This document shows, in pieces, positions 20,418 to 25,924 of a DNA stretch of 64,000 nt. The position numbers and the translations under genes are program-made. The stretch lies in the IMG/VR virus record IMGVR_UViG_3300028283_000231. The stretch is one strand, 5' to 3'. The notes beneath the pieces are model-generated. The model worked only from the letters and a program-made list of their open reading frames with translations. It did not search any database and was not told where the DNA came from. Position 1 is the stretch's first letter. Each line of letters opens with the position of its first letter. Source of the DNA: a virus (Duplodnaviria > Caudoviricetes).

Positions 20418-20575
20418 GGTTACATACAGCAACACATAGAAATATGTAAACGAGAAACTGAAGCGGTTCGCCGCTCAGCTTCACAGTGGTTTTGAGGTTC
20501 ACCTAGGTTTCCACAAAAGACAAAAAATGTGAATATTTTTAAGATACCGTTTTCGAAAAAACGGTCTGTATCCCG
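20418..20575 (+). ncRNA. Multi-hairpin RNA beginning with the ACAGCAA motif (copy 3)
   Basis: GGTTAC-AT-ACAGCAA; hairpins ACATA-GAAA-TATGT, AGCGG-TTCG-CCGCT, ACCGTTTT/AAAACGGT; possible closing GTATCC. Confidence 0.55.
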
Positions 20576-20588
20576 GAAAAGTTTTTAT

Positions 20589-20640
20589 GGATTACTTACA
20601 GCAACAAAAAGCTATAGGCAACAGCAACACACGTAATCCG
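20589..20640 (+). ncRNA. Stem-ACAGCAA motif, copy 4
   Basis: GGATTAC/GTAATCC stem, TT-ACAGCAA, second ACAGCAA inside the loop. Confidence 0.5.
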
Positions 20641-20736
20641 AGATTTTTTTCTTTATGAATGCCGTTTCAGGCAATAAAATCTCCATACGTGTGTACACCT
20701 GTACTTTAAAATTGTTTTTAGAGGAGATTAAAATTT

Positions 20737-21027
20737 ATGTTAAATTGGAAGGTTGAAAAATTACTAAGTGGTGAAACCATCACGTCTAAGGAAGCAGGTA
20801 ACTCGATGTTACCAATTCTAAAGTCTAAGCAACCTGTCGTGTTAGAACCGACAGACTGGACTAAGGTAAAAGATGGTGATATAGTCTTTGCGAAGGTTCA
20901 CGGTCGATATTACACTCATTTAGTAAAAGCTATCGACCAAAATAAAGGATGTCTTATAGGTAATAATAAAGGTGGGATAAATGGTTGGAGTAAGCAAATA
21001 TATGGAAAAGTGATTAAAATTTTATAA
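20737..21027 (+). CDS. S24/S26 peptidase-like small protein
   Basis: GNSMLPIL, GDIVFAKV...H.V (His where the catalytic Lys usually sits). Confidence 0.65.
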   Translation: MLNWKVEKLLSGETITSKEAGNSMLPILKSKQPVVLEPTDWTKVKDGDIVFAKVHGRYYTHLVKAIDQNKGCLIGNNKGGINGWSKQIYGKVIKIL

Positions 21028-21095
21028 ATTGTGTCTTGTGGAGTAAAAGGAAACTATTTATTTTTATATATACAATAAAAATAATCCCAATTAAA

Positions 21096-21941
21096 ATGAT
21101 AATTTATAAGACAATAAATTTAATAAATGGAAAAATTTATATAGGACAAGACTCTAAAAATGATGATAAATATATTGGTTCTGGATATTTATTAAGTGAA
21201 GCCATAAAGAAATATGGAAAGGATAATTTTAAAAAAGAAATTCTTGATATATGTGAAGATAAAAAAGATTTAGATAATAAAGAGATATATTGGATAAAAT
21301 ATTATAAATCAACTGATAAAAAAATAGGATATAATATATCAAACGGGGGAACTGGTGGTAAATTAGTTGAAGTAGAATGGAAAAAAGGAAGAAGTTATGA
21401 AGAAGCATATGGTGAAGACAAAGCTAAAGAAATAAAAGAGAAATTTTCAATTGAAAGAAAAGGCAAGAAAAGGGGATGGAAAAACACTACACCGGAAGAA
21501 ACTGGTAAAAAAATTAGTGAGGTATTAAAATCGAAAGATATCAAAAGAAGTGAAGAAAATAAAGAAAAAATATCAATAAAATTAAAAGAATATTTTAAAT
21601 CTGAAAAAGGAATTATAGCTAAAAATAAATTATCTGAATATCATAAAAATAAAAAATTATCAAATGAAACTAAGAAAAAACTAAGTATATCGATGAAAGG
21701 TAAATCTCCAAAAAAATTGGATGTTCATTCAACTTCAAAAATTTGGTTTTTTTATGATGATGAAAATAGGTTAATATTAGAAACAATAGGTAATTTAAAT
21801 AATACTTTAAAAAATTTAAAAATAAATTGGAGAAATATTAAAAAATTTAGTAATTTGAATGAATGTTTGGAATATAAATTAGAAAATAAAATTAAATATA
21901 AAATTTATTATAAATTATTTTACGAAAAGGAAAAATTATGA
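21096..21941 (+). CDS. GIY-YIG homing endonuclease with NUMOD3 repeats
   Basis: MIIYKTINLINGKIYIGQ, Y.GSG, E.YWI, GYNISNGGTG; start reassigned from 21036. Confidence 0.9.
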   Translation: MIIYKTINLINGKIYIGQDSKNDDKYIGSGYLLSEAIKKYGKDNFKKEILDICEDKKDLDNKEIYWIKYYKSTDKKIGYNISNGGTGGKLVEVEWKKGRSYEEAYGEDKAKEIKEKFSIERKGKKRGWKNTTPEETGKKISEVLKSKDIKRSEENKEKISIKLKEYFKSEKGIIAKNKLSEYHKNKKLSNETKKKLSISMKGKSPKKLDVHSTSKIWFFYDDENRLILETIGNLNNTLKNLKINWRNIKKFSNLNECLEYKLENKIKYKIYYKLFYEKEKL

Positions 21942-23496: not shown

Positions 23497-23508
23497 CAGA
23501 GTTTTCTG
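23476..23508 (+). ncRNA. Stem-ACAGCAA motif, copy 5 (minimal)
   Basis: GAAAAC-GA-ACAGCAA...GTTTTC-TG, 20 nt upstream of the DUF2828 gene. Confidence 0.45.
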
Positions 23509-23528
23509 CAAAAACAAAACGAAAAATT

Positions 23529-23999
23529 ATGGCAACAAAGAGAATTACATTACCAGCAGGATCACCATCAAGATTAGTAAATGGTGCTAGACAAAAAGAT
23601 ACCTTCACAGAGAAAGGTATGCCAACAAACTCAACCAGCTTAAACGCTTGCGTTGATATGTACTTCATGGCAGGTGCTGCCCGTCACTGGACAGACGCCC
23701 AAATTGAAGGATTGTTCCAAAAAGCTTTGGCTGAAGATCCTTTGACCGCTCTTAAACTTATGTTCTGGACAAGAGACGTACGTGGTGGAGCCGGCGAGCG
23801 TAATTTCTTCAGGGTATGTTTGAGTTATCTAAGAAATTATTATAAAGCCTTTTTACTTAAAAATTTGAAATTAATACCCGAATACGGAAGATGGGACGAT
23901 CTAACATGGTTATTAAGTGAAGGACAAAATGACGAAATTGATGTCGCTGTTCTTAAATATATAAAAGAAACTTTAAAAGCAGATGAAAATAAATTTTGA
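23529..23999 (+). CDS. DUF2828 (Ro/TROVE-like) protein, N-terminal fragment
   Basis: TNSTSLNACVDMYF, EDPLTALKLMFWTRDVRGGAGER..F, PEYGRWDDL. Confidence 0.85.
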   Translation: MATKRITLPAGSPSRLVNGARQKDTFTEKGMPTNSTSLNACVDMYFMAGAARHWTDAQIEGLFQKALAEDPLTALKLMFWTRDVRGGAGERNFFRVCLSYLRNYYKAFLLKNLKLIPEYGRWDDLTWLLSEGQNDEIDVAVLKYIKETLKADENKF

Positions 24000-24843
24000 T
24001 GTGATTGATTCTGAATTAAAGGCTTATCTAATTGGACTTTTTTATGCTGATGCTTATCTATCAGATCGTGTTTTACAATTATATTTGTCTATAAAAGACA
24101 AAGAGTATGTTGAAAAATTAGCAAATATATTAGGAGTTAAAACACATAATAAAAAATTATCTATTGGATTTAATATATGCAACAAAAAAATTGTAGATTC
24201 CTTGTATAAAATGGGATTTATTAAAAGGAAATCATACCAAAGAGATGATATAGTCTTTAAAAATATACCAGATGAATTAAAAAGACACTTTATTAGGGGG
24301 TATTTTGATGGTGATGGAACAATATACATATCTAAATATAAAAAGAAAAATGTTGATTGGAAGGAAAGTATTAAATATGGAATTGGTTTTATATCAATAA
24401 ATAAAGAATTATTGAATAGTATTAAAAATTACTTCTCTGTATCATTAAGTTTATCAGATAAAAAACTGAGAAGTGAAAACTCTGGAAGATTTATAAGTGA
24501 TATTAACGATGAAGATCCATATGGTGAAGAACAATGGGAAAACAACGAAATTAAATATATTAGACTGATTTATAGTGGAAACATTATTTGTAAAAAAATA
24601 TTAGATTTTTTATATGAGGGATCTACTATCTATATGGATAGAAAACATGATAAATATAAAGAGATAAGTATATTTAAACCGAAAAATTATCATTTTCATA
24701 AAAGAAGTAATAAATGGAGATATGTGTATGATGATAATGGATTAAAGAAGTATAAATTGTTTAAAACAGAAGATGAAGTTAAAAACTTTATAAAAAATAA
24801 AATTAAAAATTATGAAAGCTTTACTAGCAAAATGGTTGGATAG
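23983..24843 (+). CDS. Two-motif LAGLIDADG homing endonuclease with AP2-like C terminus
   Basis: AYLIGLFYADA and HFIRGYFDGDG; overlaps both DUF2828 fragments. Confidence 0.88.
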   Translation: MKINFDVIDSELKAYLIGLFYADAYLSDRVLQLYLSIKDKEYVEKLANILGVKTHNKKLSIGFNICNKKIVDSLYKMGFIKRKSYQRDDIVFKNIPDELKRHFIRGYFDGDGTIYISKYKKKNVDWKESIKYGIGFISINKELLNSIKNYFSVSLSLSDKKLRSENSGRFISDINDEDPYGEEQWENNEIKYIRLIYSGNIICKKILDFLYEGSTIYMDRKHDKYKEISIFKPKNYHFHKRSNKWRYVYDDNGLKKYKLFKTEDEVKNFIKNKIKNYESFTSKMVG

Positions 24844-25846
24844 AAAAGGTCCAAAGGCAAATAAAATTAGAAAATATCTTGGTTTAACACCAAAGGATTA
24901 CAGAAAGATGATAGTATCGCTATCACAGACTGTTGAGCAGTTAATGTGCGCAAAGCAATTTGAAGGCATTAACTACGAACACGTTCCTTCTGTAGCTATG
25001 AACAAGTACAGAAAAGCTTTCTACAAGAAAGATTCTGGTAGGTTCGCAGAATACATCGCAAATGTAAAGAGTGGTGTTGCCAAGATGTGCGCAAGCGCTA
25101 TCTACCCATACCAACTTTACGACGCTTTCCTAAGAGCTAGGACAGAATTCGATAATTTGGCTATTGAGGCTCAATGGTATTCGTTGCCAAACTACATGGA
25201 AGGATCAACCGAGAGGTTGCTTCCAATGGTTGATACATCGGGTTCTATGGAATTCTATGGTGGATTACCAGCAAGAGCAGGTTGGTCACTTGGTCTTTAT
25301 ATTTCTGAAAGAAACGAGAGCATTTTCAAGGACGCTTTCATGACTTTCCATACTCATCCAAAGATGATGTACTTACAGGGTAGCATCGCCGAAAGGGTTC
25401 GTGCTATCAGAGGAGTAGAATGGAAAGGTACTACAAACCTTGAAGCAGCGTTTGAATTATTGCTTAACAAAGCAATTGAGAACAAGATTTCTGAAGCAGA
25501 AATGCCAACAGTTATCTTGATCTTATCAGATATGCAGTTTGACCCATCGAAAGCTTGCTACAACGCAAACGCTTACGAAATGATGAAAGCTCATTACGCT
25601 GCAGCTGGATATAAGATTCCAAGAATCATCTTCTGGAACCTTAGAGCAGCAGAGGATAAAGTAACAGCATCAGCATTTGACGAAAATGTTGGTCTTGTAT
25701 CTGGTTTCAGCCCAAGTGGTTTGAAGGCTATTCTTCAAGGAGAAGAAATTCAAGATGAAGTAAAGGTCGAACCAAAGAAAGAAACTCCTTACGAATTGAT
25801 GATGAAAGTCATTGACGGTGAGAGATACGCAGCAGTTACTATATAA
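24812..25846 (+). CDS. DUF2828 protein, C-terminal fragment with vWA domain
   Basis: LLAKWL, INYEHVPSVAM..Y.KAF, MIDAS VDTSGSM, ILSDMQFD, IIFWNL. Confidence 0.88.
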   Translation: MKALLAKWLDRKGPKANKIRKYLGLTPKDYRKMIVSLSQTVEQLMCAKQFEGINYEHVPSVAMNKYRKAFYKKDSGRFAEYIANVKSGVAKMCASAIYPYQLYDAFLRARTEFDNLAIEAQWYSLPNYMEGSTERLLPMVDTSGSMEFYGGLPARAGWSLGLYISERNESIFKDAFMTFHTHPKMMYLQGSIAERVRAIRGVEWKGTTNLEAAFELLLNKAIENKISEAEMPTVILILSDMQFDPSKACYNANAYEMMKAHYAAAGYKIPRIIFWNLRAAEDKVTASAFDENVGLVSGFSPSGLKAILQGEEIQDEVKVEPKKETPYELMMKVIDGERYAAVTI

Positions 25847-25924
25847 TGATCAAACACGTGTAACCTGAAAAGGTGAAAGGTCTCGCGAGCCTAGGTAAAG
25901 GAATATCCCACGTTTCCCTGATCA
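25847..25924 (+). ncRNA. Candidate multi-stem RNA in the 3' end of the DUF2828 transcript
   Basis: TGATCA/TGATCA and ACGTG/CACGT closing stems; CCT-GAAA-AGG, C-GCGA-G, GGA-ATA-TCC; GC-rich island. Confidence 0.4.

Follow-up and report, generated by a model that had tools for sequence, protein, structure and literature searches.

Known Ro60 Systems and the Phage Locus

Particles of Ro60 and Y RNA occur in animals, in some bacteria and in a few phages, and to our knowledge the known particles always contain a protein of the TROVE family. In Salmonella Typhimurium, the RtcR-controlled operon rsr-yrlBA-rtcBA encodes the Ro60 orthologue Rsr, the RNAs YrlA and YrlB, and the proteins RtcB and RtcA (PMC7790460, PMC4201824). 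Thermus phage phiLo encodes a Ro60 with the RNAs Yrl1 and Yrl2 (PDB 9KOP, 9L5Y; PMC12135203), other phages carry TROVE-type Ro60/YrlA pairs (PMC4201824), and 'ROT/TROVE' is found in a few jumbo phages (PMC7824862). Here we describe a gene unit in a 64,000-nucleotide stretch of phage DNA (IMG/VR record IMGVR_UViG_3300028283_000231; the whole stretch is called the window), in which a protein of the DUF2828/DUF7788 family stands together with small structured RNAs that carry the motif ACAGCAA and with an RtcB RNA ligase. The core of this locus is probably a phage Ro60/Y-RNA-like particle, joined here by RtcB as in the Salmonella operon.

Two further systems bear on the locus. The Class I RNAs of Dictyostelium are 42-65 nt long, start with AAG, have a short variable stem with an 11-nt motif beside its 5′ strand, and end in CUGU; they are reported to be restricted to Dictyostelia, and their sole direct binder identified so far is Rnp1A, a protein with an RNA recognition motif (PMC7919456). 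In E. coli, RtcB2 and PrfH form a ribosome rescue and repair pair (PMC9304027, PMC9223846).

Like the Salmonella operon, the phage locus combines a Ro60-fold protein, adjacent small structured RNAs and an RtcB ligase in one transcription unit. An initial annotation of the window had invoked a bacterial precedent for grouping Ro60, Y RNA and RtcB, and this operon provides it (PMC7790460). In both systems the RNAs have links to tRNA biology, here through tRNA arrays and in other phages through tRNA-like scaffolds. Unlike the Salmonella operon, the locus is phage-encoded, its protein belongs to DUF2828/DUF7788 and not to Pfam TROVE, bL36 is an extra component, and RtcB is of a short 346-aa clade. 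The RNAs also differ, being a stem plus UUACAGCAA with no YrlA match. RtcA (PF01137) has no match in the 108-kb viral record to which the window belongs, itself a fragment, and no RtcR was seen, although no search was aimed at it. Of the other loci, L182 (20 bits) and L219 (39.6 bits) give only weak YrlA-like matches, below the cut-off of 69. The likeness to phiLo lies in a phage-encoded Ro60-fold ring with a von Willebrand factor A (vWA) domain and Y-like RNA genes upstream. Unlike phiLo Ro60, to which it is 16% identical and from which it is undetectably distant by sequence profile, the protein here is encoded by a gene split by an endonuclease, with RtcB alongside. The RNA signatures differ as well, since a CGAA bulge is reported for the phiLo RNAs (PMC12135203).

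The window has a G+C content of 29%. Among public genomes it is closest to two 'uncultured phage' genomes of 735 kb, LR756501 (L001) and LR756503, with about 93% identity over shared parts, and its DNA is present in sequencing runs of lake-water metagenomes and metatranscriptomes. The source is a huge freshwater phage.

A Ro60-Type Ring in the DUF2828/DUF7788 Family

Full-length homologues of the DUF2828/DUF7788 protein were aligned (n=90), and one of them, P0121, was folded with AlphaFold2 (AF2). P0121 is an intact 486-aa homologue, 94% identical to the C fragment in the window, where the gene is split. The model has a predicted local distance difference test score (pLDDT) of 90 and a predicted TM-score (pTM) of 0.90. 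In a Foldseek search of the PDB, its 13 best matches are the Ro60/TROVE protein of phage phiLo (9kop, 9l5y) and the Ro60 proteins of Xenopus, human and Deinococcus, with 9kop as the best (E 1.6e-8). VIA-align places the model on Xenopus Ro60 (1yvp) with a Z of 21.5 over 411 residues at a root-mean-square deviation of 4.2 Å. This alignment covers the helical ring and the vWA domain, and vWA domains on their own score no more than about Z 12. [quoted passage not shown]

The AF2 model thus has the two parts that define Ro60 at the level of fold: HEAT-like helical repeats arranged in a ring and, after them, a vWA domain that carries a MIDAS. The DUF2828/DUF7788 protein is accordingly modelled as a Ro60-type ring, in which a helical TROVE-like doughnut is joined to a vWA/MIDAS domain. 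The initial annotation had guessed that DUF2828 is Ro-like and had proposed a Foldseek comparison; with Ro60 as the top match, the guess is confirmed for the fold, while membership of Pfam TROVE is not. Pfam gives only DUF2828, DUF7788 and a weak VWA_2 match, and neither TROVE (PF05731) nor vWA_Ro60. PF05731 has no match in the 108-kb record, and a search of the PDB with the family profile recovered no Ro60 chain. The DUF2828/DUF7788 family is large (4347 matches in one search, and clusters in the thousands over the sequence searches), and the labels of its atlas clusters cover phages, bacteria and eukaryotes.

Structured RNAs with an ACAGCAA Motif

The RNAs lie in an intergenic leader upstream of the protein-coding genes of the unit and in a tRNA array. 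The relevant features are as follows, all on the + strand.

20337-20736 (+): intergenic region of 400 nt (open reading frame (ORF) listing)
20337-20408 (+): promoter-like block 5′ of the RNAs (AATGGAAAAAAATGACATTTTTGAC..TATATA), close to invariant across six phages with flanking p69 proteins that are 36-96% identical
20409-20514 (+): RNA1, an expanded ACAGCAA RNA with closing stem AAACUUGAAGGU / ACCUAGGUUU, unpaired UACAUACAGCAA, and GNRA and YUCG hairpins (covariation; RNA contigs)
20529-20654 (+): RNA2, a covarying hairpin, a Class-I-like unit and a U-run (blocks invariant in six phages)
48-108 (+): ACAGCAA RNA in the tRNA array, AAG-AAUAC-UUACAGCAA...GUAUU-CUGU, just 5′ of tRNA-Gly (RF01414, 37.1 bits, E 4.7e-5 over 1.4 kb)
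742-812 (+): second ACAGCAA RNA of the array, with a GAAUGCU/AGCAUUC stem and a CUGU end (RF01414, 25.7 bits)

The RNAs are about 60 nt or longer and share a layout of AAG start, covarying closing stem and CUG(U) end, with the unpaired motif (C)UUACAGCAA beside the 5′ strand of the stem. Across six phages the leader hardly changes, even though identity in the flanking p69 protein falls to 36%. Within it the hairpins covary, as read directly from the six-phage comparison; RNAalifold under-reports this covariation because MAFFT misaligns the variable hairpins. In RNA1, the GNRA hairpin is compensatory (CAUA-GAAA-UAUG versus CAUC-GUAA-GAUG) and the YUCG hairpin appears with four stems (GAAGCGG/CCGCUC, AUAGC/GCUAU, AUAUC/GAUAU and GAUCC/GGAUC). 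In RNA2, the hairpin at 20545-20570 has a CGAA or AGAA loop on a stem that covaries as CCG/CGG, CCC/GGG and CAG/CUG, and the Class-I-like unit at 20586-20643 reads AUG-GAUUAC-UUACAGCAA...GUAAUC-CGAG, with a weak RF01414 match (13.6 bits). The block at 20337-20408 would serve as the promoter.

By itself, the heptamer ACAGCAA shows no significant excess in the window (9 copies against 4.5 expected; 6 of 100 shuffles reach 9). The extended 12-mer TACWTACAGCAA is found without mismatch six times in the 735-kb relative, where a composition estimate predicts about 0.3 copies. Further ACAGCAA copies stand in the tRNA arrays of that genome, all on the tRNA strand. Taken with the covariation, these data indicate that the ACAGCAA RNAs are real, conserved and structured. 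The initial annotation had placed them both in the unit and in the tRNA array. The array copies are borne out, and so are the leader elements; the copy at 23484, which lies inside the coding sequence of a 60-aa protein, is a chance occurrence.

The likeness to the Class I RNAs (RF01414) extends to the length of about 60 nt, the AAG start, the short variable closing stem, the variable A/U-rich loop and the CUGU end, and the copy at 48-108 shows every Class I structural feature. For the 11-nt motif, the Rfam consensus is CCUUACAGCAA and the phage form is CUUACAGCAA. The RF01414 scores are 37.1 (window 51-106; L177), 33, 30.9, 30.4, 26.9, 25.7 and 13.6 bits, and no phage copy reaches the gathering score of 41.5 bits. 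Unlike the Class I RNAs, many phage copies use AUACAGCAA, CUACAGCAA or AACAGCAA and have no RF01414 score. The phage copies also stand outside the context of the Dictyostelium upstream sequence element (DUSE) promoter, which in the Class I genes lies about 60 nt upstream, a statement made without a search for eukaryotic promoters. The relation is best described as a resemblance in sequence and structure and not as membership, and it may reflect homology or convergence.

Other RNA features accompany the arrays. Three matches to tRNA models of 80-99 nt (window 444-542, 657-739 and 817-896) are not called by ARAGORN; they could represent tRNA-like RNAs or tRNAs that carry insertions. In a related array copy of LR756501 (L182), ACAGCAA lies within a 118-nt tRNA-like gene with a weak YrlA match. 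One IMG/VR contig (L247) has three tandem ACAGCAA RNAs and, roughly 1 kb upstream of them, a Hatchet ribozyme match at 1620-1705 (68.6 bits; cut-off 51).

Coupling of the RNAs to DUF2828 Genes

YrlA was established as a bacterial Ro60 partner by neighbourhood evidence of the kind used here, and only the surroundings of TROVE proteins were searched (PMC4201824). We examined 80 phage DUF2828 loci from IMG/VR (41-55% identical), with an element strictly defined as ACAGCAA together with a closing stem of 7 bp or more. The strict elements number 21 on the gene strand and one on the other. An element lies within 1 kb of the DUF2828 gene in 13 of the 80 loci, against 0-1 for four control heptamers. 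The pairing recurs in 6 of 13 loci from metagenome-assembled genomes (MAGs), and a pattern search over 50 DUF2828-bearing contigs returned 8 matches versus 1 for a control pattern. An IMG/VR pattern search with the RNA alone found perfect elements in large tRNA arrays, and two of the three contigs encode divergent DUF2828/DUF7788 proteins.

Features that played no part in the selection are enriched among 30 phage elements, whose median length is 59 nt: an AAG start is present in 21 (background 9.5%) and a CTG end in 26 (background 3.4%). In L040, three tandem elements lie directly upstream of the DUF2828 gene. The same position in L027 is held by two elements and a tRNA-like RNA in which ACAGCAA replaces the anticodon arm. 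No paper was found in the searchable literature that treats DUF2828 as Ro-like or describes ACAGCAA RNAs. The stable, widely conserved core of the locus is the Ro60-like protein with the ACAGCAA RNAs. As a side observation, the phage loci L062 (11751-12168) and L069 (9729-10220) hold transfer-messenger RNA genes (85-88 bits) at a distance of a few kb from their DUF2828 gene and ACAGCAA RNAs.

The RtcB Ligase and Its Neighbourhoods

Residues D63, C66, N107, H108, H125, H210 and H264 of the phage RtcB align to D95, C98, N202, H203, H234, H329 and H404 of Pyrococcus horikoshii RtcB. In a profile aligned to the latter, these seven catalytic residues, which serve metal binding and guanylylation, are invariant in 41 homologues. 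The active site is intact by this comparison, and the protein is predicted to be active. Its short clade has 461 detected relatives.

RtcB genes at 81-97% identity adjoin a Ro-like gene (LR756501, the P0002 contigs and L103), and relatives at 55-75% identity are surrounded by unrelated genes. By tblastn and family hidden Markov model, RtcB is absent within 6 kb of DUF2828 in all 80 of the other IMG/VR phage loci. About 85 loci of RtcB relatives hold no recurrent partner, no PrfH and no adjacency of RtcB to a release factor, and an IMG/VR search for related loci with the single RtcB protein gave no result. In a Lentisphaeria MAG (L312), a canonical 472-aa RtcB of a different clade lies 780 nt downstream of a DUF2828 gene. 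From this distribution, RtcB is therefore an occasional, independently recruited neighbour and not a core part.

Two candidate roles were rejected: that of a general DUF2828 partner, as RtcB was not found in the 80 IMG/VR loci, and that of a PrfH/RtcB2 module, on NCBIfam cut-offs and lack of linkage. Against the PrfH-coupled equivalog TIGR03073, the protein scores 81.5 bits where the cut-off is 271.8.

Gene Series and Mosaicism of the Unit

The genes of the unit follow the leader in the order given below.

20737-21027 (+): protein with an S24-like peptidase domain, 96 aa, with a GNSM Ser motif and the Lys in HLVKAI (Pfam PF00717, E 1.3e-5)
21036-21941 (+): free-standing GIY-YIG homing endonuclease (Pfam GIY-YIG / SegE)
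22002-22148 (+): DUF4926 small protein, 48 aa (Pfam E 2.7e-8)
22145-22261 (+): ribosomal protein bL36, type-B-like (Pfam PF00444, E 1.2e-21)
22272-23312 (+): RtcB RNA ligase, 346 aa, short clade (Pfam E 1.7e-25)
23314-23496 (+): basic protein, 60 aa, no family match in Pfam or NCBIfam, homologues in LR756501, L171 and L170
23529-23999 (+): Ro60-like protein, N fragment, 156 aa, about residues 1-144 of the intact form (Pfam DUF2828 positions 1-124)
23983-24843 (+): LAGLIDADG homing endonuclease ORF, overlapping both Ro60-like fragments (Pfam LAGLIDADG_3/_1)
24812-25846 (+): Ro60-like protein, C fragment, 344 aa, with the remaining helical ring and the vWA domain with MIDAS DTSGS..T..D (Pfam DUF2828 and DUF7788)
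25847-25924 (+): conserved structured 3′ element, 78 nt, between the Ro-like stop codon and the terminator, 92% identical to LR756501
25926-25955 (+): intrinsic terminator hairpin and U-run (hairpin detection, RNA contig ends)

The ORF listing with Pfam and NCBIfam scans recovered every gene that the initial annotation had named, all co-oriented on the + strand. Its description of a single unit is also supported by RNA contigs that run across to the terminator, with the amendment that the DUF2828 gene is split by the LAGLIDADG ORF.

Comparison with relatives separates stable from variable parts. The S24-like protein is 85-90% identical in LR756501 and in the clade relatives L170-L172, where the Ro-like protein is 70-83% and p69 40-60% identical, and in every one of these phages and in the window its gene stands directly 3′ of the ACAGCAA RNAs. 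This conserved protein belongs to the Ro-like/RNA neighbourhood in the clade of the window. L170-L172 retain p69, the RNAs, the S24-like gene, small ORFs and the Ro-like gene, and are without RtcB and bL36. In LR756501 the GIY-YIG gene is missing and the DUF4926 gene is swapped for an unrelated 63-aa ORF. A co-occurring strain variant, seen in lake DNA and RNA contigs, has a joint 20725>22011 without the S24-like and GIY-YIG genes, and its leader is joined to the DUF4926 gene via six different bases, AACCAT. These gains and losses mean that only part of the gene series is stable, even among near-identical phages. The GIY-YIG and DUF4926 genes are strain-variable insertions.

The bL36 protein scores 63 bits against TIGR01022 (cut-off 22.7) and 69 bits against the NCBIfam type B L36 model NF002021 (cut-off 70). 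Two of the four zinc ligands of the Cys3His zinc ribbon are present, so the protein is type-B-like. It is 100% identical in LR756501, was seen only there and in the window, and was not found in L009 or L170-L172.

A Ro-Like Gene in Pieces

The DUF2828 gene consists of two ORFs with the LAGLIDADG ORF between them, and the three ORFs are in three different frames. The N and C fragments tile intact P0121 without loss or overlap, with the break just before the helix LLGKWL. In LR756501 the gene is intact (486 aa) and the LAGLIDADG ORF is absent. The order of N fragment, LAGLIDADG gene and C fragment is found again on P0002-type contigs. At least 20 homologue clusters of 50-85% identity are C fragments, all of which start MK(N/A)LLAKWL. 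In L170 both halves are kept; the one ORF called in the space separating them has just 69 aa, and only about 104 endonuclease residues still align.

A group I intron was rejected since the endonuclease ORF fills the insertion, overlaps both fragments and leaves no non-coding room. In addition, no Rfam intron model matches, and the RNA contigs, which may miss rare spliced forms, are collinear with the DNA and contain no 23990>24815 joint. An intein was rejected because the ORFs are in three frames and there is no Hint domain. From the arrangement of the ORFs, we read the insertion as a 'gene in pieces' produced by a free-standing homing endonuclease. As a consequence of this split, the Ro-like protein would be made as two polypeptides. 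The gene apparently works as two pieces, whose products would reassemble.

Genes in pieces that arise through free-standing homing endonucleases occur in T4-like phages, as in nrdA split by mobE in Aeromonas phage Aeh1. As in those genes, an inserted endonuclease ORF leaves two fragments that are translated separately and together make up the intact protein, with start and stop codons overlapping the endonuclease ORF. Unlike them, the endonuclease here is LAGLIDADG, not GIY-YIG or HNH, and the split gene is Ro60-like. The split form here is also widespread across the C-fragment clusters and persists in L170.

Transcription and the 3′ End

Two lake metatranscriptome runs gave contigs over 19513-25918 that end at 25918/25919, just short of the terminator hairpin by a few bases, and one RNA contig (X3) spans 20420-20727. 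The region 25952-26400, which holds a convergent methyltransferase gene, is uncovered by RNA contigs and covered by DNA runs. This pattern favours genuine transcripts with an end at the terminator. The initial annotation had a structured RNA and then a terminator follow the DUF2828/vWA gene, and both are found. The predicted fold of 25847-25924 is closed by a UGAUCA/UGAUCA stem, has a minimum free energy z-score of -3.1 with the terminator included, and has no Rfam match. The hairpin at 25926-25955 was missed by a simple terminator scan.

A Release Factor Outside the Unit

A release factor gene lies 15 kb from the RtcB unit.

4945-5628 (+): RF1-like release factor (PPT, GGQ) that lacks domain 1 and contains two TGA codons in frame; outside the unit (profile scores)

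Read through both TGA codons, it encodes 227 aa and starts at domain 2. RF1 is the best-scoring profile (166 bits), and PrfH TIGR03072 gives 67.7 bits (cut-off 166.65). Elsewhere in the window TGA often serves as a stop codon. The factor could be expressed only on TGA suppression, which would fit a code-switch or timing device. A DksA/TraR-type zinc-finger ORF (4705-4923) lies directly upstream of it.

Weighing the Readings

The case for a Ro60/Y-RNA-like particle is built from the fold, the conservation of the active site, the conservation and covariation of the RNAs, the genomic coupling and the presence of the unit in RNA libraries. The likely RNA partners of the Ro-like protein are the ACAGCAA RNAs, which it would bind; two units form the leader at 20409-20654 and others lie between tRNAs. 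In a narrow lineage, RtcB and bL36 have entered the interval that separates the RNAs from the Ro-like gene, with everything in one transcription unit to the terminator, and the resulting arrangement resembles rsr-yrlBA-rtcBA (PMC7790460). By analogy to the Salmonella operon, the particle may handle damaged or misfolded tRNA-like RNAs during infection, and it may also serve as a decoy for host anticodon nucleases. The RtcB ligase, which joins 3′-phosphate or 2′,3′-cyclic-phosphate ends to 5′-OH ends, would reseal cleaved tRNAs, to the presumed benefit of the phage.

Several points weigh against this reading. At the sequence level the Ro-like protein stands outside TROVE. The YrlA and Y RNA models (RF02553, RF00019) have no match in the window at gathering score, nor at E<=5 in 20000-26200, and the link between RNA and protein is drawn from gene neighbourhood. 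RtcB is absent from the 80 IMG/VR loci and from L170-L172 and lies elsewhere in relatives, so its link to the particle is possibly circumstantial. The split gene could be inactive; the many diverged split forms that share the same start, and the retention of both halves in L170, speak for function. The RNA data are contigs, from which strand, ends and levels cannot be read, and carry-over of DNA is conceivable to some degree, though the silent flank past the terminator argues otherwise.

Another reading views the region as a mosaic of accessory genes, in which the Ro-like/RNA module, RtcB, bL36, the S24-like and DUF4926 genes and the endonucleases are independent cargo that came under one transcription unit by chance in a single lineage, with no cooperation between RtcB and the Ro-like particle. 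Close relatives and co-occurring strains often differ by insertions and deletions, RtcB is located elsewhere in related phages, and L170-L172 keep the RNAs, the S24-like gene and the Ro-like gene without it. We nevertheless judge the mosaic view unlikely, since RtcB adjoins Ro60-type genes repeatedly and independently, in Salmonella-type operons (PMC7790460), in the Lentisphaeria MAG and here, and since in the window its insertion point falls exactly between the RNAs and the Ro-like gene, with which it is co-transcribed. A different doubt concerns the RNAs, which might be cis-acting signals, either for processing or spacing of the tRNA array or as an attenuating leader of the operon, and not trans-acting partners of the Ro-like protein. 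Most copies do lie between tRNAs on the tRNA strand, RNA2 does end in a stem and U-run, and RNA depth falls after 20803. Elements beside DUF2828 genes with no adjacent tRNA (the three tandem copies of L040, and L022, L069 and L087) make this the least probable of the readings, as do their specific enrichment beside DUF2828 versus controls, the combination of a conserved unpaired motif with a freely varying stem that is typical of protein recognition, and the tRNA-like scaffolds that hold some copies, as one holds YrlA.

The initial annotation had gone further and proposed an integrated ribosome and tRNA rescue-and-repair system, in which decoy RNAs, a Ro-like chaperone, RtcB, bL36 and a conditionally expressed PrfH-like factor act against host ribotoxins. 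All parts are present in the window, the gap between bL36 and rtcB is only 10 nt, and the NCBIfam models nearest to RtcB include the PrfH-coupled type. As with RtcB2-PrfH, RtcB is short and the same genome has a release factor that lacks domain 1, expression of which requires TGA read-through. Unlike PrfH, this factor is RF1-like, scores under the PrfH cut-off and retains a PxT-type codon-reading motif. It was correctly placed elsewhere in the window and correctly described as lacking domain 1; at its distance of 15 kb, nothing links it to the RtcB unit as the supposed rescue factor. RtcB likewise falls far under the PrfH-coupled cut-off, and no PrfH-like or recurrent neighbour stands in the loci of its relatives. 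No finding points specifically to the rescue of ribosomes. The restriction of bL36 to the window and LR756501 leaves a spare ribosomal protein unsupported by co-occurrence as a system part. The annotation itself had taken a failure of the components to co-occur in other genomes as evidence against its proposal, and for the full set this is what the neighbourhood analysis found; a conserved system of many parts is not supported. We regard the integrated system as improbable.

Implications

The Ro60/Y-RNA-like particle admits a wider formulation, which we put forward tentatively: the ACAGCAA RNAs may be the cognates of a second, very large Ro60-like branch and be evolutionarily related to the Class I RNAs, and in this phage the particle may work with RtcB on cleaved tRNAs. 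If so, the Class I RNAs would be analogues of the Y RNAs, perhaps held in common with phages or bacteria or obtained from them, and social amoebae would be the place to look for a Ro-like partner.

The locus adds evidence for such a branch, in which DUF2828/DUF7788 proteins with Ro60 architecture have an RNA partner family of their own. A family of unknown function thereby gains a testable role, phage tRNA arrays are linked to RNA quality control and repair, and a lead is provided on the unexplained Class I RNAs of Dictyostelium. The particular contribution of the window lies in evidence of transcription from lake metatranscriptomes, a natural association of the particle with RtcB and bL36, and a Ro-like gene in two pieces.

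Other genes of the window include auxiliary metabolic genes. An adenylosuccinate synthetase gene (purA-like) lies at 18199-19395 (-), with Adenylsucc_synt also present in syntenic relatives, and a gene for a CorA-type Mg2+ transporter lies at 2959-3864 (Pfam E 2e-48).

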